In this document: in pieces, positions 10,801-64,000 of the stretch
Layout of the letters: each line of letters starts with the position of its first letter
How positions within the stretch are numbered: the first letter of the stretch is position 1
Origin: Phoronis australis
Lineage: Eukaryota; Animalia; Phoronida
Assembly (NCBI GenBank): GCA_002633005.1
Contig: NMRA01000616.1
Location: forward strand, 175,378 to 239,377
Direction: 5' to 3'
Length of the DNA stretch: 64,000 bases
Position numbers and translations under genes: made by a program
The notes under the pieces: generated by a model
Databases searched by the model: none
What the model was told of the DNA's origin: nothing
The model's input: only the letters and a program-made list of their open reading frames with translations

Positions 10801-13800
10801 AGATGTATAATCTTCTGCTTCTGTGTCCTTCTATCAGATTCTCCCTGACTTGGCTCTGCTAGTCGACTTTAGTAGTCTGCACCCACATTAGATTTTCTCG
10901 GGATATCTTCCAAATGAAATTTATAGTTCTGCAGCACTATTGCCCATCGCATAACTCTGGCTTTCAATCTTACGACGTTGAATGTATACCGATGGCTTTG
11001 GTCTGTCTGCGCCGCGTCGCGTAGAGATAAAACTGGAAGCGTTTAACGGCGAACGCCATCACCAAATACTGTTCTGTGAAGTAATGCAGCTGGCTCTCTT
11101 CAAGCTGCCGGCTGGTGTACACAATAGGGAATGTCTCATTATCAAACTCCTTCCGTAAGAGTGCCCCTAAAACATCGTTTGATGCATCCGTCCTAACAAT
11201 GAATATCTGGGTGAAATCTGCTTATCAGAAGAAGCACCTTCCCTCTGTGAGGTCATTTTTTTGTAGTCGACTGTCTAACTAACATGTCTCTCAACTCGGT
11301 AAGGTCTTTATCACAGACGGACATGTCGATCCACCTGTCTAGGTAGCGCTGTACGGGGTCATAAACTGGTAAGCTCTCTCCCCTCTTATCCCTCGATTCC
11401 CGAAACTGCCTGCAAACCCCCCTCCTCCGTCAGTTCAAACCGCTTCAGCAAGGCTCTTTTGAGTGTGGCATAGTCCAGTGCATCAGCCATCGGGATGCTG
11501 GTGTAAAACTTCAGACCCTTGCTTGTCAACCGGGCATTGAGACTAATTGCATATTTACTCTGTGTCGAACCCTGGCTCTCTAGGTATCTTTCAAACCTTT
11601 CCGAAAAGTTGTCCATATCTTCTTGTTTTCGTCAAACGTGGGCATCTTCGGCGTTATGTCACAAGTTATCCTAACAGGGTTACCCTCAGCTGCAACCTGT
11701 TCAGCTTTCGGTGCTGCACGTGCTCTCTCGTGTTCCATTTTTTCTCTCTCATCTGCTGTTCGGCTTTGCGGGCTTGCATCCTCTCCTCGGCCTCAGCCTC
11801 TCGAGCTTGCGTTCTCTCTTCAGCCTCACGAGATCGCATTCTCTCCTCAGCCTAAGTCTCTCGCGCTTGCCTTCTCTCCTCGGTCTAGCTTCTTGCGCTT
11901 AGTCTAAACAGGAGCCTCAGCTTGTTGTTTCTCTACAAAATGTCTAAGGTTGTCTCCCTGCAGACCCATTTTTGTCCGAGGGCCATCAACTCCCTTAGTT
12001 GAGATCTTGTCTCCATAGTGAGTCGCTAACTGCAACAGTCCTCTTTATCACACCTTGTTACCATCAGTAAACTCCTGGCGTGCTCGCCAATTGTCACGTT
12101 TTCACCATGCGTGGGTGGGTGCAAGTGGTTACCGCCCGGTGCTAATAGCTTTCGGTGCGACGATAGACTGAAGGCAGCATGATTCAAGTAATCGCTTTAT
12201 TAATCTCGACTACTTTCACAACCCTACTCAAACAAAGTAACCGATTAATGTTTGTTCTATGCTTCAGTCAGTGCTACGAAGACGTGACTTGTGATGAGCT
12301 TTTGAAACACTCTCAACACCTTTTTACACTTGTTGATTCAGTAACCTGCTGTCTCAAAAGCTGGCTATCTATTGACTATCGCTGTAACTATTGATTCATT
12401 CTCTTCACCGCAACTTTCTTGTAACTAAGTTTCAATAGTCATAAACCTGTGCTTGGGTATTTATATTCTCATGCAATGACCTTGAACTTTTTACCTGTTC
12501 AAGCACATTCTAGAACTTTCCGGAATCTACCTAATCATTATACAAACATATACTCGGCTCTAGAATGTTCCAGACTGAATTAATCACTCACTAGAATGTT
12601 CCACAGTATTCTTTGGTAATCAAATTACATCATCGCTGTCCTGACCTCAGGGGTCATGCCAATCAATAAACTATCTGCTAGAACACACACATAGAACAGC
12701 AGAAAAAAATACTTAAACTAAGAACAGTGCCAGTTTACTCCTGACAACAAGTTAAAACATTTTCTGGAGAATATTCGCAAAGCCGTTGCAACTGCCTTAA
12801 ACTGATTCGAATAATCCGTCACAGTTTATTTATGGGAGATGTTGGCGAAATGTGAAACTAAATGATAACGCAACTAAATTGAAAATAAAAGATTCGCTAT
12901 TTTGCTACTCAAGATAACCCGCAAATGTCGTTTGACGGCCGTGCGACGTTTACCTTACATAGATCAGTCCCGCGATTCTGCGTAAGATGACTCATTGATT
13001 CTCAAATAATTTCGCCACTATGTTGCTCAAGCTTTTTGGTAAAACTTGGTTCAAAATGTGATGGACATATGTATGTCACTCACACCGACTGACAAAATGG
13101 AGGAACTAGCGTGAAAAATTTCCCGATCACAATATTGAAAGGAATTCAAAACGTGCGACGACTGAAGTAGTGACGAGCCACGATTTTGGTTGATTTTCAC
13201 GATCATTAAAAGTTGGAAGTCTAATAATAGAAACGTTGTGTCAATTGAGTTGAATGTACCAACACGCACATATAACCATTTACGATGTTATCGAAAATCT
13301 GATAAGAAGGTTTTTCCCAAGGGGGCCCCTGTGTACTGCTTGGCGTGACTCTGCATGTGCTGATTTTTAATCAGCAAAATCAAAGCTGATGCGAACATAT
13401 GAAGTGCATGTATGGCTAATCTGATAAAATTGCCACGAAGCATCTCAGTCAAAATGTATGTCGCAAACGGCGAACTCGAGGTTGTCGACTATTCGTCAAG
13501 ATGGGCACCGACTGTGACTCATGTCATGACGAGAAACTTCACACACCGGTCAATACGCAAATTTACCATTTACATGTACAATGGGAACACACGGCTGACA
13601 AACTTTCAAACTGTAAAATAAATTCAAAATATTTTTTTAAAAACTTAGAGTCGATTTCGAGCAGTTGACAGATTGTTTTCTTGAAATTTAAAACTAACAG
13701 AAAAATGCGCTGACATCAACAGAAACTCCAAATATTTACAAACAAACTGTAAAAATAAATATACCTACAGAGGTGGTTGAATTCTGTTTCAGTGGCAGAG

Positions 13801-40899: not shown

Positions 40900-43155
40900 C
40901 TGGGATCCAACGCAACGATTTTTGTTATCCGTAAAGTGTTAACTGCAAACATCATGGTTCTCAACTTGCAGAAAGGTCATCTACTGAATATTTTGAGTAC
41001 TGTTATATAAAACAATGCGTCTTCACTCTGAATTTTCACCGTACTTAGCGGAAAAAGAAAGCAAAATAATCAAGAGGGTCGACGACTGATTAAAGAACAG
41101 GCAGCAAAAAAAGGTCTTCGGGAACAATCTTCATTTCCTATCATGGTCTACCGTAACAAGGTTTTGGTGGCTAAGAGAAGCTAGAAAATGTACAAGCTGA
41201 GTCTCCAGTACAAGACGGTGGTGAACTCTTGTTCTAAAAACTCAAGGTGACACAAACAGAAACCCCTCAAATCAGGTGAGAGAAGAGCTCGTGTTTGGCA
41301 ATATGCTTGGAAGCTTACGAGCACACACTAGCAACATGGCGACCACATAATTATTAAGTGATACGGAATTCAATGCTTCCGTTCTATATGCAAAGATTTC
41401 TCGTTTCAAGTGAAGAGTAAGTGTCTTGGTTCTACCTAACACAGACGAGTAGGTTCTCTTTGTCAAGTAGACAACCTGTTCCACATTATGTAGAGGCTGT
41501 TAAATTCCGGTTTGTCCCGATTGCCTCTCCTCTCTTCTTGTTAGGCAACTCGAGGAAAACTTGTCTCTTGCATCATCACTTCACCAATGACTTACCTCGA
41601 CTGTCAAAAGCGTGTGTCAATTCCTGCCCATGCACTGTACCGAGAGCTCCAGAATTCAGGGATCTTAAAATCATGATGACCTCATAAATAAATAGAAAAT
41701 ACACCATCGTGTAGAGAATTATACAAGCAATATCGAAATTAAACGGATGCTAAACCTATTTAGGCCTATGAAAACATATAATTATACAAGTGGTTCCATC
41801 AAATTCTCTGAAATAAGATAATGCTCAGTAACTATCCACAAACCTCGAAAGTTTTGATATTTTTTCTAAATCTGTTAAACGGGCAGGAGTGAACTATGCT
41901 TTAGACGAGTAAAAATGACAATATCATTAAAAGCCACCCGGCAAAATGAGACACAATATCCAATCTGTGACGCAAATCAGTATAAAATTTAGTTGAAACC
42001 TGCTTTTAACATTCAATTGGTACACCGATGATGCATTGTAGGTGACAGAATGATGGCTGATTGAAATCAACAAAACAGTGTCTAGCATCCTTTTAAAAAT
42101 TAAGATGTGGGTCTTTTATTGAGAAATCTTTTGTGTCTTGTCAAATATCCTCTCCTTTTTAACAAAATACTTTTTATTATAATCCTGTGAGTAATCGAAT
42201 TTGTGTTTTTACTCACCTGATCTGCCTGATATCGGATAAATGTCACCAAAGTGTTAATACCCTTACCAGTTAGCCCCAGTAAAATGTTCGAAGTTTATTA
42301 ATCGACATCTTAAGTACGCCATATTGTGCTTTCAAAGGTAAGCTAAAGGGTTCATATTCCTTCACAAATTAGCGTGCCTGGCACGTTGGGGTGTGAATAT
42401 ATGCAATGGCAAAGGTTTTTTGTTTTGTTTTCGGTTTTTAAGAAGAAAATAAGTTGTGATTTCATTTCCGGAGTACAACTCACAAAGGGTATTTGGAACT
42501 TGTCTTTGTTTGAAATTAAGGATTTTGGTTGTGGTAAACAAGGTCGCTCTCAGTTTAGGGATGCGTTGTTACATTACTTGAGACATTGCCGACCATAAAA
42601 GGGTGGTTGAAGTATTCCAACCATGAAAAAATTCATTGGTGAGCGGTTTGTAGTGCCCATTGTCAACCTTCAACATCATACCCCACCTGAAAAAAGAACA
42701 ATAACGTGACTTCAGCACGGGAAAGTTCCTGAAACTGATATAATTTGCATGGAACGTCCTTTTTTGAAACTGTCTTTCAGTTTTCGTGTTTACAACCATT
42801 CGCTTTATAAAAAGCATTAGATTTTTTACAGTAGCCCGACGGAATTCATGCCTGGTTTGTGAGTGTGTAAGACAGCACCGCACGGTTGGATATAAACTTG
42901 GTTTCATCTTCTCAAGATTACGGGATTATGGTGGTTATTAGTTCACTAATGCGACTCATGCTTTAAAAATATTGCCGCTAGGAGAGACATATACACATTA
43001 TCCTATAATGTTTTTAAATACTTTAATTATACGATTTCCAAGAGCAGCTGGATGCTTTCGATCACTGTCGCTTATCTCGATCTCTTTAAGCTATTCACCA
43101 GTAAATGGAATTCAACTGTCCTTTATCCATTCGGTCACTCGCAGAACTTACTTTA
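40900..43155 (-). pseudogene. Decayed inverted M13 fragment psi1 (exons 14-16 + introns)
   Basis: Exon 14 copy 42578-42686 has a 2-nt deletion; exon 15 copy 41596-41663 has HELTH>QELTH; exon 16 copy ~40970-41048 has a lost acceptor and a frameshift/stop. Confidence 0.9.
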
Positions 43156-43176
43156 AACATTTGATGGAACTGTGCT

Positions 43177-43287
43177 CAACCGTCATCTTCAGTTGGTCTC
43201 CCACTGTCCTTAATGGTTTCGTCCCTAAACCAAGACCATCTCTAGTAGGCGGGACAACAGAGTTGATCAGGCTCTGCCTGACGGTTG
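43177..43287 (-). ncRNA. Structured 3' UTR RNA element with hammerhead-ribozyme core motifs (candidate pseudoknotted hammerhead)
   Basis: Six complementary helices use nearly every nucleotide. GUC, GAAA and CUGAAGA sit at the helix junctions expected for a hammerhead core. Activity untested. Confidence 0.55.
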
Positions 43288-43293
43288 TTGATG

Positions 43294-46200
43294 TTATTGC
43301 TGTTGGTGCTTCATCCATATCCAACAAGATGCCTGTTCAGCTTCGGTGGCCACGTCGCGGAGAAGAACCTTCTTTCCTGTCGCAGAGACGCCCAGAGACC
43401 TTGCCATAGCAGTAACCGAGCTGGCCGGAAAACCACGGCAACCAACCTCCACGGAAAAACTCCAACACCTCCAGCCGTTAACGTGGCAGTCACTCCTCAG
43501 ATCAGTATATTTCAGGTTCTTCCGCTCGTGTGCCTCTTCTACCCTACTCTCCCACGGAATGGTGAGCTCGATCAGGATGATCTGGTGGGAACTATCCGAA
43601 TAAAGAATCAAGTCAGGGCGCTGGGTAGTCTGGACAATGTGCTGTGGGAAGGATGACTGGTGACCGGCAAGATCAACCCACAATTTCCAGTCGTTGGCTG
43701 TGTGAAGGATGCCTTTCTGCGCTGGTGACTTCTTCTTACTTGCCTCATCGCCACTTCTTCTGAAACTGATAAATTCGATCCGGTGGCTTCTTGACTTTGG
43801 TTTACTTTTGACTTCGTCAACCAACACCCTTGCGAAAACTTTCAGTACCTGGTTGTGCCGGTAGGTGTACTTTCCTGATGCCAAAGACGCGCTGCAAGAT
43901 GACAGAATGTGTTCTAAAGAACATCTGCGTCCACACTGAATACAGCTCGGGTTGTCAGTAAGACCCCAAATAGCAAGGTTGCTGGGAGTAGGCAGTACAT
44001 CATAAACAGATCTGATGAGAAACTTTGCTTTCAAAGGCGACATCTTCCACAAGTCCGCCCACTTTATTTCCCTTTGCAAGACTTTGTCCCACTTCGTCCA
44101 CGCCCCCTGCTGACCCATCTGAACTGCTCGGGCATACCTTCCTTCGTTCTCTGACAATCTAACTTCTCTGATTATTCTGTCTCTGTCTGGGTTTTTAAGT
44201 CTCTTCCTTGCTGGATTCCCGGTCTTGTAGCCCAGTCCTTGCCTACCCTGGCAAGCACTCCCTATCAGTTGCTTGTGCCTCAGCCGGCTTTCTGCTTCGC
44301 TGATTGCCGACGTGGTGGACCACTTACTGCCGGTACGTGACTGGGTGATGCAACCACTGATAGCCTGGTCAGATGTATTCCGCAGAGTGATACTGGCTCG
44401 CACTTTGGTAACTTTATATTCCTCCACCACAGATGAGACCGGAAGAACGAGTTTCGATGACTTGCAGTACAGCCCGACGTTGCTGAATGATGCAGGTAGA
44501 CCAAGCCACCTTCGAATGAACCGGCTCGCTGCTCTTTCCATTTCCTCAGCTGAAGACGACGTGACGTCGTAGATTAACAGTGGCCACATAAGTTTCGGGA
44601 GCAAGATGAACTGGTAGCACCAAAGCTTGAATCTTCCGGGTATGCCGTCTTTGTCGATCTTCTCAAGCCAAACCTTGAGCTGGGCTTTCACATCCTTGAC
44701 ACGGGATGTGTCTCGTAGGCTGCTATCATAGTACTTGCCAAGGCACTTGACTGGTTGTTCACTTATTGTTGGAATTCTGCATCCTGCTATCGAAAACGTC
44801 TGTCTCTTGAGCAACACGCCTCTGTTGATAATTAGTGATCTGGACTTCTCTGCCTTGAATGACATACGGGCCCATTTAGTGAGCTCTTCTAGGCAACGGA
44901 GAATTGTTCTGGCTCCCACTGGTGACTCTGTCACAATTGTAATGTCGTCAACAAAAGCTCTACATGACGGCTGTCTGACTTCATCTAGCTTGGGACCTCT
45001 TCGCTCAGATTGGGCTCTCTTCAGCAGGACATTCATTGCCATGATAAACAGGATGACTGAAATGGTACAGCCCGTCATAATTCCTTTTTCAAGGTGTTGC
45101 CACTTCGTAGTGAAGTTGCCGACTGTGAAACGCATCACACAGGAGCTATAGTATGACTTCACTATACTCTTGACTTTCTCAGGAATGTGGTAGATGTCCA
45201 TGGCACGATAAACTAATACATGTGGTACCGAACCGTACGCATTTGCCATGTCGAGCCACACCATAGACAGATTCTTCTTGCCCTTCTTCGCTCGGTGTAT
45301 GAGTTCACTTATGATAGAATTATGTTCCAGGCATCCAGAAAAGCCTGGTACCCCGCCTTTCTGTGAAGATGTGTCAATATACTTGTTCTTGATCATGAAG
45401 TCTGTCATTCTGCCGGATAGGATTGCTAAGTAGATCTTTCCTTCCACGCTAAGCAGTGAAATTGGTCGAAACTTGCTAATCTGCTTCGAGCCTTCTTCTT
45501 TCGGAACATAAACTCCTTCAGCTCGCCCCCACTGGGCTGGAACTATGCCCTTCCTCCAGAGGATCTTAAACAGCTTCCAGAGCCTTTCTCTCAACTTGGG
45601 ACACATCTTATAGACCTTGTAGGAAATTCTACTTGGACCAGGGGCTGACCCCGATCGGGCTTTCTTCACAATGCTATCCACTTCTGACTTCTTAATGTCC
45701 CCCAGATCAAAACCTTCGTCCGGTAGATCTTCAGCCTCTACATCTGGGAAGTCGCCAAGGGGAGTATCTTTCAACTCATCACTGTGAATTTTGGCAAGGT
45801 GATCCTCCAAGTCTGCCCGGGTGCAGGTAAGTGTTCCGCTTTTGCTCTTGCCTAAAAGCCTTGAAGCATACTGGTAGGGGTTCCTAATGAATTTCTCTCT
45901 CTGCCTTGACCGTTTCTTCCTATTTTGTGCACCTCGTTCTGCTTTGCGGAGGGACAATAGTCGCTTGCGGGCCTCAGATGTCAGGTGAGTTATTCCTGCT
46001 TTTTCGTGCTCAGCTGCACTCTTCCACAAGCGACGGAGTTCTCTAAGCTCTCTGCGGATAGTCACTATTTCCCGTTGTCGTCTGTTTGGTCCTCGTGGGT
46101 TTGATGTTTCCTTTCTTTTCTCTACTGTTCCAAAGCGGTCCACACTGACTTGGTAAACAATCCTAGTCATAGCCTCAATCTTTGTCTCTGCTGGACCTCG

Positions 46201-46542
46201 AAGAGTGACACGTAAGATGCTATCCAGATCATCGTCTAAGGCTGACCACACCTTCTTATCAGCTGCTGATGGCCACTTGATTCGATCCTTCTTTGCAGTA
46301 TCTGGTGGACCTGCTGAACTGGCTGGAACTGGATTCTGAAATACTTCAGCTTCTACTACTAATGCTTCCATCTGATGCGTAGCTGGGAGGTCTTCTGCAC
46401 TGTGGTTTGAGACCTGGCTCAATCCCTCCCCCGTCTCACTGGACGTGGCGCCCAAGCGTTGCCTTGCGACCTGACGTAAGCACTTCATCTTTCCTTGGTG
46501 GATCTTCAACCCTCTTAAATTCTTCAGAATCTTTCCACACAC
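43294..46542 (-). CDS. Retrotransposon polyprotein: Zn finger - RT - CCHC knuckle - restriction-like endonuclease
   Basis: CVCGK..NLRGLKIHQGKMKC; RT motifs FRPISLL, WLDMANAYGSVPH, GIMTGCTIS, AFVDD; CIQCG...LEHILSSC, RHNQVL, RPDLIL...IELTIPWE...K..KY. The frame stays open up to the junction at ~46578 with no ATG. Confidence 0.95.
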   Translation of the reverse strand: MCGKILKNLRGLKIHQGKMKCLRQVARQRLGATSSETGEGLSQVSNHSAEDLPATHQMEALVVEAEVFQNPVPASSAGPPDTAKKDRIKWPSAADKKVWSALDDDLDSILRVTLRGPAETKIEAMTRIVYQVSVDRFGTVEKRKETSNPRGPNRRQREIVTIRRELRELRRLWKSAAEHEKAGITHLTSEARKRLLSLRKAERGAQNRKKRSRQREKFIRNPYQYASRLLGKSKSGTLTCTRADLEDHLAKIHSDELKDTPLGDFPDVEAEDLPDEGFDLGDIKKSEVDSIVKKARSGSAPGPSRISYKVYKMCPKLRERLWKLFKILWRKGIVPAQWGRAEGVYVPKEEGSKQISKFRPISLLSVEGKIYLAILSGRMTDFMIKNKYIDTSSQKGGVPGFSGCLEHNSIISELIHRAKKGKKNLSMVWLDMANAYGSVPHVLVYRAMDIYHIPEKVKSIVKSYYSSCVMRFTVGNFTTKWQHLEKGIMTGCTISVILFIMAMNVLLKRAQSERRGPKLDEVRQPSCRAFVDDITIVTESPVGARTILRCLEELTKWARMSFKAEKSRSLIINRGVLLKRQTFSIAGCRIPTISEQPVKCLGKYYDSSLRDTSRVKDVKAQLKVWLEKIDKDGIPGRFKLWCYQFILLPKLMWPLLIYDVTSSSAEEMERAASRFIRRWLGLPASFSNVGLYCKSSKLVLPVSSVVEEYKVTKVRASITLRNTSDQAISGCITQSRTGSKWSTTSAISEAESRLRHKQLIGSACQGRQGLGYKTGNPARKRLKNPDRDRIIREVRLSENEGRYARAVQMGQQGAWTKWDKVLQREIKWADLWKMSPLKAKFLIRSVYDVLPTPSNLAIWGLTDNPSCIQCGRRCSLEHILSSCSASLASGKYTYRHNQVLKVFARVLVDEVKSKPKSRSHRIEFISFRRSGDEASKKKSPAQKGILHTANDWKLWVDLAGHQSSFPQHIVQTTQRPDLILYSDSSHQIILIELTIPWESRVEEAHERKNLKYTDLRSDCHVNGWRCWSFSVEVGCRGFPASSVTAMARSLGVSATGKKVLLRDVATEAEQASCWIWMKHQQQ

Positions 46543-46578
46543 ACAGGTTCTTGATGCTAAATCGGTGTTCGTAATCGT

Positions 46579-47830
46579 AGGATTATAATATGAAGTATTT
46601 TGTTAAAACGGAGAGGATATATGACAAGACGCATTCCATTTCCTAATAAAAGATCCATTATAATTTTTAAAAGGATGCTTGACACTGTTTTGGTAATTTA
46701 AACCAATCCTAGTTCTGTTACCTGCTAATGCATCATTGGTGTACCAATTAATGTTAAAACCAAGTTTCAACTAAAAACCCCATACTCATTTGCGTCACAT
46801 ATTGGATATTGTGGCTCTTCGTGGGTAGTTTTTCATTAAAGTTGTCATGTTTAACTCGCCTTAAGCATAGGTCATTCTTGCCCGTTTAAAAGACTTCGAA
46901 AAAATCAAACTTTGCTCTAAACTTTCGAAGTTTTTCGACAGTTACAGAGCATTATCTTATTTCAGAAAATTTGATGGAAACACTCGTATATATCTTTTAA
47001 TAAGCCTGGACCGGGTTTGACAACCGTTTAACTTCGATACTGCTTGTATAATCCTCTACACGGTAGTGTATTTTCTTTTTATTTAATGTGGTCGTCATGA
47101 TTTTAAGATCCCTGGATTTCGGAGCTCTCGGTACAGTACTTGGACACGAATTGACCCATGGGTTTGACAGTCGAGGTAACTCATTGGTGAAGTGATGATG
47201 CAAGCGACACAATTTCACCATTTCCTCAAGTTCTCTAACAGAAGAGAGGAGTGGCAATAGAGACAAACCGGAATTTAACAGCCTCTGTATAATGTGGAGC
47301 AAGCTGCCTACTTGACAAAACGACACTTACGCTTCACTTGAAACCAGAAATCTTCGCTTATGGAACGGAAGCATTGAATTCTGTATCACTTAATAATTAT
47401 GTGGTCGCCATATTGCTAGTGTGTGCTTGTAAGCTTCCAAGCATATTGCCAAACACGAGCTCTTCTGTCACCTGATTTGAGTGGTTTCTGTTTGTGTCAC
47501 CTTAAGTGTTTATAAGAATCTCCTGCTGAGTTCACCACCGTCTTGTACTGGAGACTCCGCTTCTCTTTTAAGAGACCATGGTAGGAAATGAAGATTGTTC
47601 CCGAGGAGTTTTTTTTGGTGTCAGACAGTTCTTTAATCTGTCGTCGTGATTATTTTGCTTTCCTTTATTCAACTGTGTTTGGTTAAAAATATAGAGAGAA
47701 GACACAGTGTTTTATAGAACAGTACCCAAAATATCCAGTCCATGACCACTCTGTAAGTTGAGAACCATGATGTTTGCAAACAACCCTTTACGGATAACAA
47801 AAGTCGTTGCGTTGCATCCCAGAGTGCTAC
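46579..47830 (+). pseudogene. Decayed M13 fragment psi2 (intron 14, exons 15-16), mirror image of psi1
   Basis: Exon 15 copy 47108-47175 still reads [22 protein letters not shown]; exon 16 copy 47673-47752 has an AG>AA acceptor and an in-frame TAA. Confidence 0.9.
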
Positions 47831-52000: not shown

Positions 52001-55000
52001 GTTTTCTGTTATATTTTGAGCTAAAAAAATTAAACTTGATTAATTATTGGTAGCCGGATCACCCGTTTCGATACTGCACTCAAGTGGCAATGGACAGTAT
52101 CGAACATCGTGGTGAAACGAAGAAGTTCATTTTACAATAGTGCTTTGTACCAAGTTATACCGTACTGAAGACAAAAAGGATGTTTCAAAAGGTAAGGCCC
52201 AATGACTATCATAATCGGTCCAGTCAGAATGAGGTAAAACTAACCTGTTTGATATCATCTCCGGCTATTATACCACGTAGGACAAAAATTGAATGAGATA
52301 CTATGTCCTTTAGTGAATAGGGTAATGTGTAACTGTTTGTCGTTGAGAACCGGTCAGGATCCAGCCGAGGCCATGGAGTTACATGGAAGTCAGTCTTCAC
52401 CTGATTTTACCAGAAGTCTACAAGGCTCCTCGAACAGAAGCTTTCCTATTCTAAAAGTTTGCTGAAGCTCCGTGATATGCCATTCATTCCAAAAACAAAA
52501 CACTCCTCTACCGGGGAAAGTTCTAGCGAAAACACAAAGCCGACTGCCCTCTTTGGACGTCCGGGTAATGACGTAAGTGTAACTTAATGTGGAATACAGT
52601 GCATTTCAATTGGCTAACAACCCCATATCTGTACTACAGAGCACATAATCACCTGCACGGCAACTGTTTGGTTCTCGACTGGATGAATCTAATCATTCAA
52701 ATCTCTGTGATGCAACGCAACGATTGTTTTTAATTGTAAACATCATGATTCTCAACTTACATAATGATCATAGACTGGATATTTTGAGTACTGATCTATA
52801 AAACATTGCGTCTTCTCTCTGAATGTTTCACCAAACTCAGCTGAAAAAAGAAAGCAAAATAATCAAATGGCAGAATAAAAAATAGGATGCAAACAAAACT
52901 CTAAGCGAACAATGCGAGTGGTAGTGTAGTAGCTATTTCTTAATTAAAAACCGATACTGAAGTGGAAAGTGCTGCGATAGATTATTAACTTTTCCATTTT
53001 TTCAGATTGCCGTGCACCTTCCATCCAACAACTCATAACCGTTGACCCATCTGAGAAAGAGTCACAAGTCAATGATAAGATGTTGCGGTTTTATCTTCAT
53101 GGTCTACCGTAACAAGATTTTGGTGCTTAACACAAGCTAGAAAATGCACAAACCGAGTCACGGGTAAAAGACGGTGGTGAACTCAGTAGGCGATCAAGAA
53201 AACTGAAATCACTCAAAATCACGACAATAGGCTCGGAAGCTTTCTAGCGTACACCGCAAAACATCGATGGCGACCACATACATGTAATTGATTGATCAGT
53301 TACATTGGAAGACAGTATCATGATACGGAATTCATCGTTTCCGCTCCGTAAGTGACGATGTATCGTAGCAAGTGAGCTTGGGTCTACCTAACACAGACTA
53401 GTATGGTCAATTTGTAAAGATAGGTTGACTGCTCCACATTCTCTAAATTCCGGTTTGTGACTATTCCCACTCCTCCTGTTAGACAATTTGAGGAAATGAC
53501 GAAAACATGTCGTTTGCAGCACCACTTCACCAATGAGTTACCTCGACTGTCAAACCCGTGCGTCAATTCATGCCCAAGTACTGTACCGAGAGCTCCAAAA
53601 TTCAAGGATCTGAAAATCATGACGACAGCATAAATGAAGAGAAAAGACATTATTGTGTAGGGGTCTATACAAGCGCTATCGAAGTAAAAAGGATGCCAAA
53701 CCCAGTTTAAGCCTATTACAAGATGTTATACAGGACCAATTCCATCATCAAAGTCTCTGCAAAAATATAATGCTTTGCAACCTTCGAGGTTCGTCGAGGG
53801 TTACAGATGCATCATTCTTCAGTGAAAATCAGGAGGCACTGACATTTAATGGAAATGCGAACAAACTACTCTACCCGATATTTTCGGCATATAAAGACTT
53901 TCTGATAAACAAAAATGGGCAAATACCTATCACGTGGGTATGAAATGTACAGCACTGTGGGTAGCTCATCACATTGGTTGCAGTGTAGCACTTTCCATAA
54001 AAATTTTGAAATAAACTATTTCTTTCAGAACGCAAAAGTTAGTGATCCTGATAGTGTATATGTTACAGTAAACAATATACATGGGAACACAGTTTTACGG
54101 TTGTTCAGTTACTACAGAAAATGGACTCTGGAAAGTAACAGTATTCATAAAAAGAGACGATATTATTCTGAGCACCTGCTGCATAGCTGCCACAGTCAAC
54201 ATTCAATAAGGAAAAAACTAAACAACTGAATTGAAAAGCGGGCTTAAAGATAAAAAGCNNNNNNNNNNNNNNNNNNNNNNNNNNNNNNNNNNNNNNNNNN
54301 NNNNNNNNNNNNNNNNNNNNNNNNNNNNNNNNNNNNNNNNNNNNNNNNNNNNNNNNNNNNNNNNNNNNNNNNNNNNNNNNNNNNNNNNNNNNNNNNNNNN
54401 NNNNNNNNNNNNNNNNNNNNNNNNNNNNNNNNNNNNNNNNNNNNNNNNNNNNNNNNNNNNNNNNNNNNNNNNNNNNNNNNNNNNNNNNNNNNNNNNNNNN
54501 NNNNNNNNNNNNNNNNNNNNNNNNNNNNNNNNNNNNNNNNNNNNNNNNNNNNNNNNNNNNNNNNNNNNNNNNNNNNNNNNNNNNNNNNNNNNNNNNNNNN
54601 NNNNNNNNNNNNNNNNNNNNNNNNNNNNNNNNNNNNNNNNNNNNNNNNNNNNNNNNNNNNNNNNNNNNNNNNNNNNNNNNNNNNNNNNNNNNNNNNNNNN
54701 NNNNNNNNNNNNNNNNNNNNNNNNNNNNNNNNNNNNNNNNNNNNNNNNNNNNNNNNNNNNNNNNNNNNNNNNNNNNNNNNNNNNNNNNNNNNNNNNNNNN
54801 NNNNNNNNNNNNNNNNNNNNNNNNNNNNNNNNNNNNNNNNNNNNNNNNNNNNNNNNNNNNNNNNNNNNNNNNNNNNNNNNNNNNNNNNNNNNNNNNNNNN
54901 NNNNNNNNNNNNNNNNNNNNNNNNNNNNNNNNNNNNNNNNNNNNNNNNNNNNNNNNNNNNNNNNNNNNNNNNNNNNNNNNNNNNNNNNNNNNNNNNNNNN

Positions 55001-55333
55001 NNNNNNNNNNNNNNNNNNNNNNNNNNNNNNNNNNNNNNNNNNNNNNNNNNNNNNNNNNGCCGGAAATTCTCAGTTCAAACTCTTGCCGCTAGTGACTGGG
55101 TTGCAAAGCTTTAATAACAGAATGTTTAGGTCACGTGGGGGAGTTGGAAATCCACCGCTAGACTTTTGTGTGATGTTGAGGAATTTTAGCTGCTAAGTTT
55201 CTTGCTGGCGTTGTTACATTACTTAGGAAATTGACGATCATAAAAGGGTGGTTGAAGTATTCCAGCCATGATAAATATTTCGTTGGTGAGCGGTTTGTAG
55301 TGTGCATCGACAACTTGTGGCATCTTATCCCAC
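49038..55333 (-). CDS. Gene B: convergent paralog of the M13 peptidase, exons 14-20 (5' exons not in window)
   Basis: Exons 55333-55223, 53609-53542, 52840-52761, 51816-51751, 50920-50825, 50385-50309 and 49137-49038 have the same lengths as in gene A, intact AG/GT sites, no stops, and [13 protein letters not shown] and CKVW* retained. Confidence 0.88.
54259..55058. other. Assembly gap
   Basis: Run of N. Confidence 1.
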
Positions 55334-56122: not shown

Positions 56123-56264
56123 TTGCGGAATATTCCGCAAGTGTGCGGAATATTCCGCAAATGTGCGGAATATTCCGCACTCAGTGCGGAATATTACGCA
56201 GACTTTGCGGAATATTACGCAAACTTTGCGGAATATTACGCAGATTTTGCGGAATATTCCGCAC
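56123..56264. repeat. Minisatellite, 20-21-bp period, palindromic core TGCGGAATATTCCGCA
   Basis: About seven units visible directly. Confidence 0.9.
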
Positions 56265-56479
56265 TCAGTGCAAGATTTGTGGAATACTGTGACTTGAGAA
56301 GTATGTATATTTTGTGGAATAATAATCAAAATAATAATTTATTTTTAAAAATCAATGTGAAAGTTCCAAAAAGCCAAACAGAAAAGTTTAGCACAGGACT
56401 AAAATTTTTAATTTTCTCCCGGCCCAATAAACATGAATTACATTCCATTCTCAATAGAACTTGAGAGTATAATGTGCCC

Positions 56480-59400
56480 ACTCTCAATAATATATTAATC
56501 AATGTGACGGTTGCAGAATGGTTCCACATGCGGAACGGTTCCGCAAACAGAATAGTTTTTTGGAGAACACAATTTTTTTAAATTCTCATGACCAATAAAG
56601 TCAAATTGCATTCCATAATCAATACAACTTGAAAGTATCAATGTGACAATCCTAACAATAATTACTTGATCAATGTGACAGTTGCGGAACCATTCCGCAT
56701 ACGGAGCCGTTCCGCAAACAATACGTTTGTGATACTCACAAGTTTTAAAAAAAATTTCTTGCACATTTCAGTTGAAATATATTCTATTCTCATTAGCATG
56801 TGGAAATATCAATGTGTCAACTTGAACAATGATTGATCAGTGGGGAACTTGCTGAATGGTTTGTGATGCAGAAACCTACCTCAAGCGGACTCGGGGAAAA
56901 TTGACATATTGTCTATGACATTTTACCGCTTTTGGTAGAACCTTAACACAAGCCACGAAATATTCGAATCTTAACGTTCAACAAGCATTAAACATCAAAG
57001 TATCAGAATTTCTACCCCAACCATAATTAATTATTAAAAGTGACAGTTGCGGAACCGTTCCGCATACGGAACCGTTCCGCAAACAATACTTTTGTGATCC
57101 TCACAAGTTTTAAAAAATTTTTCTTGCACATTTCAGTTGAAATATATTCTATTCTCATTAGCATGTGGAAATTTCAATGTGTCAACATGAACAACAATGA
57201 TTGATCAGTGGGGAACTTGCTGAATGGTTTGTGATGAAGAAGCCTACCTCAAGCAGACTCCGGCGAAAAATTGACATCTTGTTAATGCTATTTTACCGCT
57301 TTTGGTAGAACCTTAACAAAAGCATGAAATATTCGAATCTTAACGTACAAAAAGCATTAAACATAAAAGTATCAGAATTTCTACTCTAACAATAATTAAT
57401 TGTTAAAAGTGACACTTGCGGAACCGTTCCGCTTGCGGAACCGTTCCGCAAACAATACTTTTGATCCTCAGAAGTTTTAAAAAAATTTTCTTGCACATTT
57501 CAGTTGATATATACTCTATTCTCAATAGCATATGGAAATATCAATGTGTCAACATGAACAATGATTGATCAGTGGGGAACTTGCAGAATGGTTTGTGATG
57601 AAGAAGCCTACCTCAAGCAGACACGGGGGAAAAATTGACACCTTGTTTACGCCATTTTACCGCTTTTGGTAGAGCCTTAACACAAGCCATTAAATATTCG
57701 AATCTTAATGCGGAACAAGCATTAAACATCAAAGTATCAGAATTTCTACCGTAGCAATAATTAATTATTAAAGGTGACAGTTGCGGAACCGTTCCGCAAA
57801 GAATACTTTTGTGATCCTCACAAGTTTTAAAAAAGTGTTCATGCACATTTCAATTGAAATATAATCTATTCTCAATAGCATATGGAAATATCAATGTGTC
57901 AACATGAACAATGATTGATCAGTGGGGAACTTGCTGAATGGTTTGTCATGATGAAGAAGCCTACCTCAAGCAGACTCGGGGGAAAAATCGCCATGTTGTC
58001 TATGACATTTTACCGCTTTTGGTAGAACCTTAACACAAGCCACGAAATATTCGAATCTTAATGCGGAACAAGCATTAAACATCAAAGTATCAGAATTTCT
58101 ACCGTAGCAATAATTAATTATTAAAGGTGACAGTTGCGGAACCGTTCCGCATGCGGAGCGGTTCTGCATGGGGAGCGATTTCCCAAACAAAATGGTTTTA
58201 TGGGGTATTTCTTTTCACCAATCATCTTAAAATGCATTCCATTATAATGCCACTTAAAACTTTCGATGTGACAATCCTAACAGTAATTAGTTGATCAATG
58301 TCATAGTTGCGGAACCATTCCACATGCGGAACGATTCCGTAAAGAATACTTTTGTGACCCTCACAATTTTAAAAAAATTTTCTTGCACATTTCAGTTGAA
58401 ATATATTCTATTCTCAATAACATATCAAAATATCAATGTGTCAACATGAACAATGATTAATCAGTTTGGGACTTGCTCAATGTTTGTGATGAAGAAACCT
58501 ACCTCAAGCAGACTCGGGGAAAATTGACATCTTGTCTATGCCATTTTACCGCTTTTGGTAGAACCTTAACAAAAGCCATGAAATATTCGAATCTTAACAA
58601 ACAAAGAGCATTAAACATAAAAGTATCAGAATTTCTACACTAACAATAATTAATTAATAAAAGTGACAGTTGCGGAACTATTCCGCATGCGGAACCGTTC
58701 CACAAACTATACTTTTGCGATCCTCACAAGTTTTAAAAAAGTTTTCTTGCACATTTCAGTTGAAATATACTCTATTCTCCATAGCATATTGAAATATCAA
58801 TGTGTCAACATGAACAATGATTGATAAGTGGGGAACTTGCTGAATGGTTTGTGATGCAGAAATCTACCTCAAGCAGACTCGCGAAAAATTGACAACTTGT
58901 CTATGCCATTTTACCGCTTTTGGCAGAACCTCAACACAAGCCATGAAATATTGAAATCTTAACGTACAACAAGCATTAAACATAAAAGTATCAGAATTTC
59001 TGCACTAACAATAATTATAATTAATCACTAAAAGTGACAGTTGCGGAACCATTCCGCATGGGGAACCGTTCCGCAAACAATACTTTTGTGATCCTCACAA
59101 GTTTTAAAAAAATTTTCTTGCACATTTCAGTTGAAATATACTCTATTCTCAATAGCATATGGAAATATCAATGAGTCAACATGAACAATGATTTATGAGT
59201 GGGGAACTTGCTGAATGGTTTGTGATGCAGAAACCTACCTCAAGAAGACTTCAGAAAATTGACATCTTGTATATGCCATTTTACCTCTTTTGACAGAACC
59301 TTAACACAAGTCATGAAATATTCAAATCTTAACGTACAAGAAGCATTAAACATAAAAGTATCAGAATTTGTACCCTAACAATAATTAATTAATAAATGTG

Positions 59401-60505
59401 ACAGTTGCGGAACCGTTCCGCATGCGGAACCGTTCCGCAAATAATACTTTTGTGATCCTCACAGGTTTTAAAAAATTTTTCTTGCATATTTCAGTTGAAA
59501 TATACTCTATTCTTAATAGCATATGGAAATATCAATGTGTCAACATGAGAAATAATTAATATGTGGGGAACTTGCTGAATGGTTTGTGATGCAGAAACCT
59601 ACCTCAAGCAGACTCGGGGAAAAATCAACATATTGTCTATGACATTTTACCGCTTTTGATAGAACCTTAACACAAGCCACGAAATATTCGATTTTAATGT
59701 GGAACAAGCATTAAACATAAAAGTATCAGAATTTCTACCCCAACAATAGTTAATTAATAGAAGTGACAGTTGTGGAACCGTTCCACATGCGGAATGGTTC
59801 CTCAAACAATACTTTTGTGATCCTCACAAGTTTTAAAAAAAATTTCTTGTGGATTCCAGTTGAAATATACTCTACTCTCAATAGCATATGGAAATATCAA
59901 TGTGTCAACATGAACAATGATTTATCAGTGGCGAACTTTCTGAATGGTTTGTGATGCAGAAAGCTACCTCAAGCAGACTCGCGAAAAATTGACATCTTGT
60001 CTATGTCATTTTACCGCTTTTGGCAGAACCTTAACACAAGCCATGAAATATTCAAATCTTAACGTACAACAAGCATTAAACACAAAAGTATCAGAATTTC
60101 TACCCTAACAATAATTAATTAATATAAGTGACAGTTGCGGAATATTTCTGCATGCGGAACCGTTCCGCAAACTATAGTTTTGTGGAGCTCACAATTTTTT
60201 AAACTTCTTACACATTATGGTTGAAATATATTCTATTCTCAATAACACGTGAAAATATCAATATGTCGTCATGAGCAATAATTAATCAGTGAGGAACTTG
60301 CTGAATGGTTTTTGATGCAAAAACCTACCCCTAGCAGACTCAGGGAAAAATTGATATCTTGTCTATGCCATTTTACTGCGTTTGGTAGAATGTTAATACA
60401 TGATACGGAATATTCAAATGTTAATGTGTAACAAGTATGAAACATAAATGTATAAGAATTTGTACCGTAACAATAATTAACTAATAAATGGAGCCGTTCC
60501 GCAGG
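56480..60505 (+). repeat. Tandem array, ~365-bp period (dimer of ~180-bp monomers)
   Basis: ttgcggaaccgttccgca cores at ~56682, 57047, 57416, 57781, 58134, 58670, 59041, 59405, 59770 and 60135. Confidence 0.93.
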
Positions 60506-62619
60506 ATGTCAATTTTATATAATAATATTTCCCAGTTAAATGGTTTTCATACATCAGTGTTAGAGCACATTTTATTTTTCCATGATTTTTGGGTACCTCA
60601 GAATTGAGCATTTTGGCTTCTATGAAAAAATTCAATCGGAAAAATTAATTTAAAAATTTTTTTTCATTGATGTCCTGTGTATGTGCAATGACATGAGCAA
60701 AAAAATAGGGTTCCCCAATTAGTTTTCATGCTACAGGTATCTTAGCTCAATTAGAAAATTCACTTTCTCAAAAATATGCTCAATTTCACAACTACAGCTT
60801 TGATTCACCACATGATGATTTTGCCCTATCGATGGGAATGTGAAAAACGTTTAAGTTAAAGGGAATAAACTAACGAAACAAATTTCATCATAAATGAATT
60901 AAAATTTGCTGGTGTACTACGAATTAGGACGCAGTCATGTATAGTGTCTACACTTGTGTTTGTTAAAGAATTCATTTACGAATGAGTAGAAAGTAAAAAT
61001 AGCAAAGTACCATTTGAATGACCACGTGATTCAACAGCCTAAAGATGGCAAAATATTGTTCTTGTTTAAATAAGTTTGGGTGTGCAAAAATGCGGCTGCC
61101 ATAGTTTTTGGTTCTCCTTGTTATATCAGCAGATTTCACAATTTAGAACAAAAACAATTGCCAAAGTTGCCATTTTTCCAGTTTAACACGTAGCGAAGTA
61201 AATGTTTTCATCCTTTTTACTTTTGTTGAAAATTTGACAAAATAAAATTTTACTGTTCCACCATATTGCGTTATAAATTGAGGAATCTTTACTTCAATGT
61301 AATGGGGCCCCTATCAATCTAGCCAAGGTGTGGGAAATCTTTCTTAGCCACTGAAGTTAAATTGCCAATCTCCTGTTGTCCTCTGCATAGTAATGTGATG
61401 CAAACAGAGCAATAAATGGTCAATACAGCTTGGAGGTCAACCTGCCAGTGTGTCAACTGGTTTATAACAGTTGGACTTTGATTCAGAGATTTTGAGATTG
61501 TACACCCATAAATTAGGAACCTGGTGAAAAGCAATGGTGTAAAGTAGAGGTTTAGAGATGGTGAAAAGTAAAAGTGCATACAAAGAAAAGAAAAAAATAC
61601 AAATTTATCAAAGACAGAACAACAAATTTCAGGCCAAAAGAATCCTCAAATATAACACAAGAATTGAATGTAGAGAATACAGTGCTTTTGTGACAAACTT
61701 GTTCACTGTTTTGGGTACTACAGTTGCTTATACTGGTATGAAAAATATCTATGAAAATTCCAGCATAGAATGAACTTAGAGTTTAATAAGTTATTATGCA
61801 CCTAAAATACTTAAATTCTAAGGTGATTGCATTAGAATTAAATGGTCAAGTTCTAAGAAAAAATGAACAATGACCTAGCAGTGTGCATAAACATTTTTAG
61901 GAATATATGATTAGTTGCTTAAATTTACTATCCCTCTTGGTGAGTGACTGTCTATTCTCAAGCAGTTCTTTATGGCAAAGCCAACAATGCAGGACATTAA
62001 CTGATGTTATCAGGCTTGGCCTGAGCTAACTAATTCGATTACATAACTGGATACCACTGTGGGGATAGTACTGGTTTTGAAATGAAATGGGGATGGTCAA
62101 CCACCATTACACATGACTGTTGAACTGCATATCTGATCCATATGAAAGTCTAGATTCATCAGCATCAATCAGTTTCACAACAAGCTAGTAGTTCATTTGT
62201 CACTTGCAATGTTAGTTTTTTCACTCTCATTAATGTTATCACCAGAATTGGTGAAGGTGGTGTGGGGTGCCCTTGCCAGTTCTTGTAGTCAGTCTTAAAT
62301 AAACAAAATTTGAGAAATTTCACTCACTCACTCTTACAGACATTCATGCAGATAATTTGAAAATGGTGATAACAAAGATAATAAAAATACCAATACCAAT
62401 AACACCAATAATAATAACACCTGGTAATTCTGATATTACTAATAGTAATTAGAACAATAAAAACATGTAGTAACTACTGCTATTATTACTATTTAAACGG
62501 CAGAGAAAACTGAGACTGTTGGGCTCTGGAAATGAAAAAATATTATACCCCTATGGATATGGAATTGTGTGGTATTCAAAAGGCGTGGGTAATGAGCTTC
62601 AATTTTTAAAAGAATTTCG

Positions 62620-64000
62620 NCCATGAGCGGTTAAATGGCATAACCAAATGTCAATTTTTCCCCGAGTCAGCTTGAGGTAGGTTTCTACAACACAAACCAT
62701 TCAGCAAGTTCATCACTGATTAATTACGGTTCACGTTGACACATTGATATGTCCATGTGTTATTGACAATAGAATGTATTTCAATTTTAATTCGCAAGCA
62801 TCAATTTAAAAAAATGTGAGCTCCACAAAACCATTGTTTGCGGAACGGTTCAGTAACTGTCATATTGACCACCTAATTATTGTCAGGATTGTCAGATTGA
62901 TACTTTCAAGTGGCATTGATTATAGAATGCATTTTAAGTTCATTGGGCAAAACAAATACCAAGCAAAACCATTCTGTTTGGGAAAACGCTCCCCATGCGG
63001 AATGATTCCGCTTGCGGAACGGTTCCGCAACTGTCACATTGATCAACTAATTACAGTTAGGATTGTCACATCGATACTTTCAGGTGGCATTGATAATGGA
63101 ATGCATTTTAAGATTATTGGTGAAAACAAATACCCCATAAAACCATTTTGTTTGGGAAATCGCTCCCTATGCAGAATGATTCCGCATGCGGAACCGTTCC
63201 GCAACTGTCACTTTTATTAATTAACTATTGTTGGGGTAAAAATTCTGATACTTTTATGTTTAATGCTTTTTGTACATTAAGATTCGAATATTTCATGGCT
63301 TGTGTTAAGGTTCTACCAAAAGCGGTAAAATGGCATACAATGTAGACAATATGTCGATTTTTCCTCGAGTCTGCTTGAGGTAGGTTTCTGCATCACAAAC
63401 CATTCAGCAAGTTCCCCACTGATCAATCATTGTTCCAGTTGACACATTGATATTTCCACATGCTAATGAGAATAGAATATATTTCAACTGAAATGTGCAA
63501 GAAAATTTTTTTAAAACTTGTGAGGATCACAAAAGTATTGTTTACGGAGCGGTTCCGCATGCGGAACGGTTCCGCAACTGTCACTTTTAATGATTAAATA
63601 TGGTTGCGGTAGAAATTCTGATACTTTGATGTTTAATGCTTGTTGAACGTTAAGATTCGAAAATTTCGTGGCTTGTGTTAAGGTTCTACCAAAAGCGGTA
63701 AAATGTCATAGACAATATGTCGATTTTTCCTCGAGTCTGCTCGAGGTATGTTTCTGCATTACAAACCATTAAGCAAGTTCCCATTGATCAATCATTGTTC
63801 AAGTTGACACATTGATATTTCCACATGCTAATGAGAATACAATATATTTCAACTGAAATGTGCAAGAAAAAATTTTTAAGCTTCTGAGGATCACAAAAGT
63901 ATTGTCTGCGGAACGGTTCCGCATGCGGAACGGTTCCGCAACTGTCACTTTTCATAATTAATTATGATTGGGGTAGAAATTCTGATACTTTGATGTTTAA
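62620..64000 (-). repeat. Inverted copy of the same tandem array
   Basis: Reverse-complement units (gcggaacggttccgcaactgtcac; cttgaggtaggtttctgcatcacaaaccattcagcaag). Confidence 0.93.

Follow-up and report, generated by a model that had tools for sequence, protein, structure and literature searches.

An RNA fold in the 3' UTR of an RLE-type non-LTR retrotransposon of Phoronis australis appears, from comparison with its relatives, to be a hammerhead of the non-circularly permuted kind, in a variant that the literature searched does not contain and that is carried by an animal LINE; we predict it to be a ribozyme. It lies at 43177-43287 on the minus strand of the window (the whole 64-kb stretch of DNA that was analysed) and had been proposed in a first-pass annotation whose quotation of the sequence proved accurate: the fold starts 6 nt after the ORF stop and all six pairings are present at the coordinates claimed. 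The further claim that it fills the 3' UTR held in that the fold directly follows the stop, but the element continues ~31-34 nt beyond it, to ~43143-46. In many relatives the fold overlaps the ORF stop codon. At its widest, our proposal is that an autonomous LINE lineage is copied from an RNA that a ribozyme cuts and that is closed again into a circle, the hammerhead having a seventh wiring beyond the six proposed permutations, with a split stem II and a k-turn-bent stem III; taken whole, we give this somewhat less than an even chance.

The element has the single ORF with N-terminal zinc finger, reverse transcriptase, CCHC knuckle and PD..E endonuclease that characterises RLE-type non-LTR elements:

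43294..46602, minus strand: single ORF of 1102 aa, stop to stop (open-frame translation)
46480..46545, minus strand: N-terminal CxC..H..C motif, residues 20-41, which we take to be zinc-finger-like (read from the translation)
44761..45504, minus strand: reverse transcriptase domain, residues 367-614 (Pfam RVT_1, E=4.8e-23)
43894..43944, minus strand: CCHC zinc knuckle, residues 887-903 (translation and homolog alignment)
43429..43620, minus strand: motifs RPD ... E ... VEVGCRGF, presumably of a restriction-like endonuclease (conserved in the homolog alignment)
43143..43176, minus strand: element tail (RNA reads and DNA contigs have their loose ends at 43142-46)

Reverse transcriptase chains of R2 and L1 match the RT domain with near-equal scores, and the zf-RVT match to the CCHC knuckle (E=0.00029) lies below that family's curated cut-off. 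Homology of the ORF to its best relative (62% identity) begins at about residue 8 (~46581), and a motif search found no 5'-UTR motif upstream of the ORF; judged by its sequence, this copy is 5'-truncated, without its family's 5' UTR. We take the element to be HERO-like. The 85 ORF homologs are mainly unnamed proteins from fish, lancelets, molluscs and metagenomes, with no protein named HERO among them or among 10 clusters, and the label also leans on what the host range (fish, lancelets, molluscs) suggests. HERO elements are mostly without target specificity, according to the accessible part of PMC4640811; here, the 3' flanks of copies differ in reads and contigs that bear the host's species label, and no target-site duplication was found around the 43294..46602 copy.

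Reads and contigs of the same species label place the element in a multi-copy family, and its 3' boundary falls at ~43143-46, ~90 nt beyond the predicted cut, with no poly(A). In run X2, summed contig depth peaks at ~18,000 on the tail (positions 43166-43181) against ~3,500 at the ORF end, which may reflect many short 3' copies, depth being no measure of copy number. Viral contigs yielded no relative of the ORF, and three matches in prokaryote assemblies (L080, L081, L082) are RLE-LINE fragments on short contigs, probably eukaryotic contamination; L081 holds a complete fold at 928-1049. Elsewhere the window contains another reverse transcriptase fragment (8465-9208, plus strand; RVT_1 E=3.6e-15) near a short tandem repeat at 11772-11883, satellite- or Helitron-like arrays of 174-365-bp units with a 17-bp near-palindrome TGCGGAACCGTTCCGCA (56123-63940) and, inside a 24% GC segment, ~1 kb open in all six frames (54105-55196) on which the tandem-repeat finder was silent, a candidate for low-complexity or ambiguous sequence.

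The fold consists of six helices, the pairing of each checked on the sequence:

43287-79/43185-77, minus strand: helix P1
43278-72/43262-56, minus strand: helix P2 (hairpin)
43255-51/43225-21, minus strand: stem II
43249-44/43205-00, minus strand: helix P4
43240-35/43217-12, minus strand: stem III
43233-27/43199-93, minus strand: stem I

Read 5' to 3' along the RNA, its parts are as follows, where fractions of 61 count those covariance-model matches that span the core (61 of 72, the 11 not covering it being left out):

43279..43287, minus strand: P1 5' strand, an extra helix closing the fold (3 pairs above the tree-aware threshold; double changes in 9/9 pairs)
43256..43278, minus strand: P2 hairpin with loop palindrome UGAUCA at 43269-64 (double changes in 7/7 pairs)
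43251..43255, minus strand: stem II 5' strand with the G10.1 equivalent, not covalently joined to A9 (two top-ranked covarying pairs)
43244..43249, minus strand: P4 5' strand (1 pair above threshold; 90.4% of cells paired)
43241..43243, minus strand: predicted k-turn, non-bulged strand with G43242 and A43241 (signature in 25/39 matches)
43235..43240, minus strand: stem III 5' strand, ending G16.2-U16.1 (2 pairs above threshold; U16.1 in 55/61)
43233..43234, minus strand: predicted cleavage site after C17, between 43234 and 43233 (by analogy only)
43227..43233, minus strand: stem I 5' strand, joined through one A (43226) to the stem II 3' strand (2 pairs above threshold)
43217..43225, minus strand: stem II 3' strand GGGAC and G12-A13-A14-A15.1 (core letters 60-61/61)
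43200..43216, minus strand: stem III 3' strand, k-turn bulge AAG and GA (43211-07), P4 3' strand (G43208 53/61, A43207 52/61)
43186..43199, minus strand: stem I 3' strand and C3-U4-G5-A6-N7-G8-A9 (core letters 57-61/61, N7 free)
43177..43185, minus strand: P1 3' strand directly after A9, in place of the canonical stem II 5' strand (canonical 10.1-11.1 pair in 5/40 rows)

We evaluated the fold in 82 related loci (79 metagenome and 3 genome-collection) retrieved with an alignment of the ORF C-terminal domain. A strict descriptor matched once in both strands of the window and in 39 of the 82 related UTR stretches around the stop codon, and had no match in 82 reverse complements, 1480 dinucleotide shuffles or, as motif-matched controls, 120 viral stretches carrying CCGAAAC and CTGATGA at the same spacing. 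A covariance model trained on 33 descriptor-picked rows matched 62 of the 82 loci at E<=1e-4, all in the element sense, 32 of those loci being in the training set; among the 20 without a match, 8 end <=130 nt from the stop and L033 starts with the fold's tail. A clade of eight loci lacking the fold, seen in a quick tree, was rejected as mostly an artefact of a short search range: L020, L042 and L073 carry the fold further from the stop, as L033 again shows by starting with its tail. In such long-3'-UTR families the fold lies at L020:1925-2044, L042:2198-2319, L073:529-650 and L051:2373-2500, which is ~370 nt past the stop in L051, ~540 in L042 and ~640 in L020; in L073 the only visible fold is the upstream one, which follows the end of that element's own 3' UTR.

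For covariation, and to avoid circularity, a set of rows was chosen solely for GAAA..CUGANGA and aligned by sequence alone. These came from 48 of 83 sources, 46 of them complete and 40 non-redundant (L006 and L029, incomplete, and six near-duplicates were left out), with a mean identity of 47%. Among 7061 column pairs in the 40 rows, the top 13 are all predicted pairs and represent all six helices. Against a null in which substitutions were re-dealt on the tree (300 runs, family-wise 95% threshold), ten column pairs score above threshold and all ten are predicted: three in P1, two each in stems II, I and III, and one in P4. The first-pass annotation had named covariation of its six helices and invariance of the core as its check, and both came out in its favour, except that the best P2 pair scores 33.5 against a threshold of 33.9, narrowly under. 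In the alignment of the 33 descriptor-picked rows, which is biased by that choice, 83.4% of cells pair against 58.1% when shuffled and <=45.5% when slid, with 349 double changes against 121 shuffled; only 63% of stem I cells pair there, where length variation misaligns this stem. Frequent variants in the host species preserve pairs as well (43202, 43183, 43277), the one at 43202 changing G-U to A-U in other copies of the same species; one expressed host-species copy carries numerous changes that leave bases unpaired, along with G at position 17.

Simple minimum-free-energy folding gives z = -1.25 and retains only P1, P2 and stem II; that it misses the full fold is to be expected where five helix pairs cross. 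That the fold is a chance match or a reading artefact, as this modest z-score and the silence of Rfam might suggest, has next to no probability left after the blank shuffles, reverse complements and motif-matched controls and ten significant pairs out of ten predicted, the covariation already excluding chance. By sequence comparison, the fold is confirmed as real and conserved across dozens of related elements.

The core motifs reported earlier are likewise confirmed, with CUGAAGA at 43192-86, GAAA at 43220-17 and GUC at 43236-34 directly before 43233. By analogy with other hammerheads the cut would likely fall after C43234, between 43234 and 43233, and the 60-nt 5' product predicted from a start at 43293 is arithmetically correct. 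U4, G5, A6, A9 and A13 occur in all 61 core-covering rows, G12, A14 and A15.1 in 60, G8 in 59 and C3 in 57; N7 is free, and the G10.1 equivalent is G in 57. L027 has U3 together with A8, presumably a compensatory version of C3-G8. The core is flanked directly by stems I, II and III, each of which has two significant covarying pairs. The letter at the cleavage site of a hammerhead may be A, C or U, not G. Position 17 is C in 24, U in 22, A in 14 and G in 1 of the 61 rows (G in 1 of the 28 non-training rows), and such tolerance of A, C and U but not G, as read from the alignment, would be hard to explain by protein binding. By analogy, it is highly probable that the RNA is an active ribozyme.

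A second CUGA, in the P2 loop, was considered as a core motif and rejected as it reads CUGAUCA. Palindromic hexamers are common in the P2 region (UGAUCA in 15 of 39 matches, another listed palindrome in 11 more) and suggest a possible loop-loop dimerisation; in several families the TGA of this hexamer is the ORF stop, so that the fold overlaps the coding end.

The wiring is what distinguishes this hammerhead. Types I, II and III share a circularly permuted three-way junction without core pseudoknots; here, five helix pairs cross. Rfam gave no relevant match at E<=10 around the fold, no gathering-score match in the window and no relevant match in 19 related loci. The first-pass annotation was therefore right to place the strand order outside the three types and, given strong covariation and core conservation, to describe a permuted hammerhead that standard models miss. 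From 5' to 3', the site block, GAAA block and CUGANGA block follow in the order S-G-C. The annotation was unaware that this block order itself has been published, as that of type SGC non-circularly permuted hammerheads (Eckert et al. 2023, PMC10085705, in its accessible text). That text treats CUGAnGA and its stem II strand as inseparable, an assumption made for all six published permutations.

In this fold, a canonical stem II was considered and rejected: its first pair (10.1-11.1) can form in 5 of 40 rows and the three after it in 29, 21 and 20, none of them covarying significantly, and the strand after A9 covaries with P1 instead. Replacement of stem II by a multi-helix junction, as the annotation had it, is borne out, the strand after A9 lying in P1 and the stem II 5' strand coming from upstream. 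Block C is split, as the aligned rows show, by a four-way junction of the core, P1, P2 and stem II, which has no unpaired base in 39 of 39 descriptor matches (the descriptor penalised slack). P4, with one significant pair, bridges from the 5' strand of stem II to the 3' strand of stem I, and we judge it, from the text of PMC10085705 only, to be the probable equivalent of the extra helix 'I' of type SGC. Between stem III and P4, a k-turn signature of a 3-nt bulge and then tandem G-A pairs occurs in 25 of the 39 matches; with bulges of 0, 1, 2, 4 or 6 nt the same GA/GA signature occurs in 0-3, and with a bulge of 5 in 9. The k-turn consensus is a 3-nt bulge followed by tandem G-A/A-G. This signature extends stem III, and a k-turn is predicted from it.

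A distant relative on a long branch (L082, 30% identity) carries at 1190-1243 of its plus strand an S-G-C order with an intact 3-bp stem II (CUGAUGA-GGG with CCC-GAAA), which 0 of 5000 UTR shuffles pass in what is a post-hoc test on a single sequence with short stems. This plain type-SGC-like motif is possibly the ancestral wiring.

The surroundings of the fold bear on its role. In 16 of the 82 loci the tail continues into a conserved multi-hairpin region and the N-terminus of an ORF of the same kind, as counted (reverse-strand matches in L050 excluded) on metagenome contigs that may collapse repeats and at loci chosen by the ORF C-terminus. Since the tail runs into the start of the next copy, the fold is located at unit junctions of head-to-tail copies, an arrangement that the first-pass annotation had overlooked, as it had the k-turn, and that answers its caveat that cutting severs the 3' end. 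A motif for the 5'-UTR region has a fold upstream in 15 of its 17 real matches, 13 at 36-74 nt and 2 at 286-351 nt, numbers biased by how the loci were selected; one spurious match inside the L057 ORF was excluded. Among 15 loci with near-complete ORFs, eight show the sequence preceding the 5' UTR, and in seven of these (L001, L010, L016, L027, L033, L055, L073) the fold or its tail precedes the element start, the exception being L023 with unrelated sequence ahead of its 5' UTR. The tail-to-5'-UTR junctions are seamless in many families, and the match of terminal copies stops 5-7 nt ahead of the conserved region (L001, L016, L055). From site to 3' end the distance is ~90 nt here, 91 in L001, 90 in L016 and 133 in L055. 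Overlapping tandem copies are 90-100% identical in seven loci; L010:1-5400 is a head-to-tail tandem of two subfamilies, 67-75% identical, with a complete fold in each.

Tandem junctions without a detectable fold occur at L052:1158-1570 and in L054/L057 (L057:2690-2820), and the L052 and L057 tandems have no model or Rfam match between copies; deletion or another ribozyme class is possible there. By eye, the UTRs of L054/L057 and L042 were also read as HDV-like or twister ribozymes, and these readings were rejected for poor fit and no Rfam support. The multi-hairpin region past the tail has 3-4 short hairpins with GAAAGA-like loops common to families (L014:1430-1520, L009:2505-2590, L002:1991-2080) and is a candidate protein-binding or cap-independent translation element.

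We lean, on slightly better than even terms, towards a route in which cuts at successive junctions are followed by re-joining into a circle, with reverse transcription starting ~90 nt past the joint. Bent back by the k-turn, P4 would clamp stems I and II at their distal ends, in place of the loop-loop contact that is usual there. When a tandem is transcribed by read-through, the RNA would be cut at two successive copies of the fold. This would release a unit-length RNA with both ends still paired; its 3' end, held against the 5' end of the same molecule, would be sealed to it by the ribozyme or by a ligase of the host. Reverse transcription would then start just upstream of the conserved multi-hairpin '5' UTR', pass the joint and perhaps exceed one unit, leaving insertions that keep the fold intact close to their 3' end, as well as partial repeats in head-to-tail order. 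Four of the six helices (P1, II, P4 and III; 26 bp) span the predicted cut, so that the products should stay together, the unit's 3' end could pair with its own 5' end and re-ligation would be favoured; it is this holding of the products and pairing of own ends that favours the circle. Animal retrozyme hammerheads do give RNA circles, in which RtcB closes 30-80% and self-ligation 1-3% (PMC7229834, from the portion available).

Several observations weigh against a circle. In three runs of the same species label (~18-19% of each, depth ~12-50), RNA reads run through the site and their ends do not accumulate there, a negative of little weight at this depth and in such poorly suited libraries; short reads cannot show a circle, because a joint at the cut would have the same sequence as tandem DNA. 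The mixed-subfamily tandem of L010 cannot come from one RNA circle, the L052 and L057 tandems are without the fold, the 5' UTR of L023 follows unrelated sequence and the expressed host-species copy with many unpaired changes has G at position 17. Type-SGC ribozymes are also slow, at 0.007-0.19 per min (Table 1 of PMC10085705, as excerpted), and the 1-3% self-ligation of retrozymes is low.

The main rival keeps an active ribozyme on a linear, R2-like route: the upstream fold would cut the read-through transcript and make the 5' end of the next copy, the downstream fold would often stay uncut and serve as template, and tandems would arise by template jumping or adjacent insertion. Template jumping by the R2 reverse transcriptase is known. 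This route fits L001 and L010 better than the circle does, L010 as a mixed-subfamily tandem and L001 as the one case whose upstream repeat, starting with the contig itself, sets in 1 nt past the predicted first base of the 3' product. R2 ribozymes process their element out of a co-transcript (PMC7650587 and PMC13580325, in the parts available), and slow cleavage is usual for type SGC (PMC10085705, likewise). However, the upstream repeat of L016 begins 23 nt ahead of the site, whole folds lie upstream in L010, L027 and L073, neither a step in depth nor clustered loose ends are seen at 43233 in DNA contigs or RNA reads, and with 26 bp across the cut the products would part with difficulty. We consider this linear route unlikely, though the likeliest of the alternatives to the circle.

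LINE proteins bind their RNA in the region where the fold sits. The fold could then be a hammerhead derivative that does not cleave and is recognised by the element's protein to start reverse transcription; its position at that protein-binding location, the RNA reads that cross the site and an A9 unjoined to the stem II strand, against what the accessible text of PMC10085705 assumes for all six permutations, are all in keeping with this. The core letters are nonetheless near-invariant, and the variation of position 17 among A, C and U with avoidance of G is the pattern expected from selection for cleavage, which argues against a mere binding site; we hold this role to be improbable. Marginally less probable still is an active ribozyme that acts as a brake or switch, where the cut removes the 3' end and limits mobility, or parts message from template, with no role in making ends. 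The predicted cut does fall within the 3' UTR of the unit, ahead of its 3' end, and most loci with long downstream sequence are not tandem, but a brake leaves unexplained both the seamless tail-to-5'-UTR junctions in many families and the fold or tail ahead of seven of eight visible element starts.

An open-access literature search did not find this wiring, Eckert et al. being the sole type-SGC source (subscription papers and Repbase Reports, outside its scope, could hold a prior description), nor anything joining hammerhead, HERO and non-LTR; 'xHHR' returned engineered ribozymes only. No such motif is described in the accessible parts of PMC13580325, PMC13725137, PMC10162972, PMC4640811 and PMC7650587, of which PMC13725137 mentions hammerhead variants with additional helices. 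If the wiring is as we propose, CUGAnGA and its stem II strand would be separable after all, contrary to the published assumption, and non-circularly permuted hammerheads, hitherto obscure RNAs of metatranscriptomes, would gain a place in a widespread animal retrotransposon. It would also give a handle on how a non-site-specific RLE LINE forms RNA ends and head-to-tail copies, a question shared with Penelope-like elements, and would be relevant to gene-insertion engineering, as a single uninterrupted RNA module may underlie what are annotated as separate 5' and 3' UTRs.

The hairpin ribozyme, which is ligation-prone, uses a perfect four-way junction to scaffold a small nucleolytic core; the scaffold is alike here and the core unrelated, making this an analogy only. 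The closest likeness is to the type-SGC hammerheads (HRIMA-1 and variants; PMC10085705, within its accessible text), which share the S-G-C order, the same core letters, the pseudoknots, a short stem I-to-stem II linker and an extra helix tying the other sides; in these, however, CUGAnGA and the stem II strand are uninterrupted, whereas here they are split by a four-way junction with P2, and the k-turn signature extending stem III is a feature of this fold. Penelope-like pLTRs and animal retrozymes also have a hammerhead at partial or full tandem junctions, with a short 'tail' (PMC8557442, PMC7229834, both in part). Retrozymes yield unit-length linear and circular RNA (PMC7229834), and in Penelope-like elements hammerheads, whose role is unclear, accompany partial tandems of the same sort (PMC8557442), from the same excerpts. 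Theirs are canonical type I motifs in GIY-YIG elements or non-autonomous repeats, whereas the motif here is rewired and belongs to an autonomous LINE of the RLE type, a group that the available text of PMC8557442 describes as without terminal repeats. With R2 and its 5' HDV-like ribozyme, the element shares an RLE-type single-ORF organisation, a self-cleaving RNA (here predicted) upstream of the ORF of the processed unit and a possible link to cap-independent translation (PMC13580325, PMC7650587 and PMC13725137, as far as their accessible parts go); the ribozyme class is different, and here the whole fold sits in the 3' UTR of each copy and comes to lie upstream of an ORF only in tandems.
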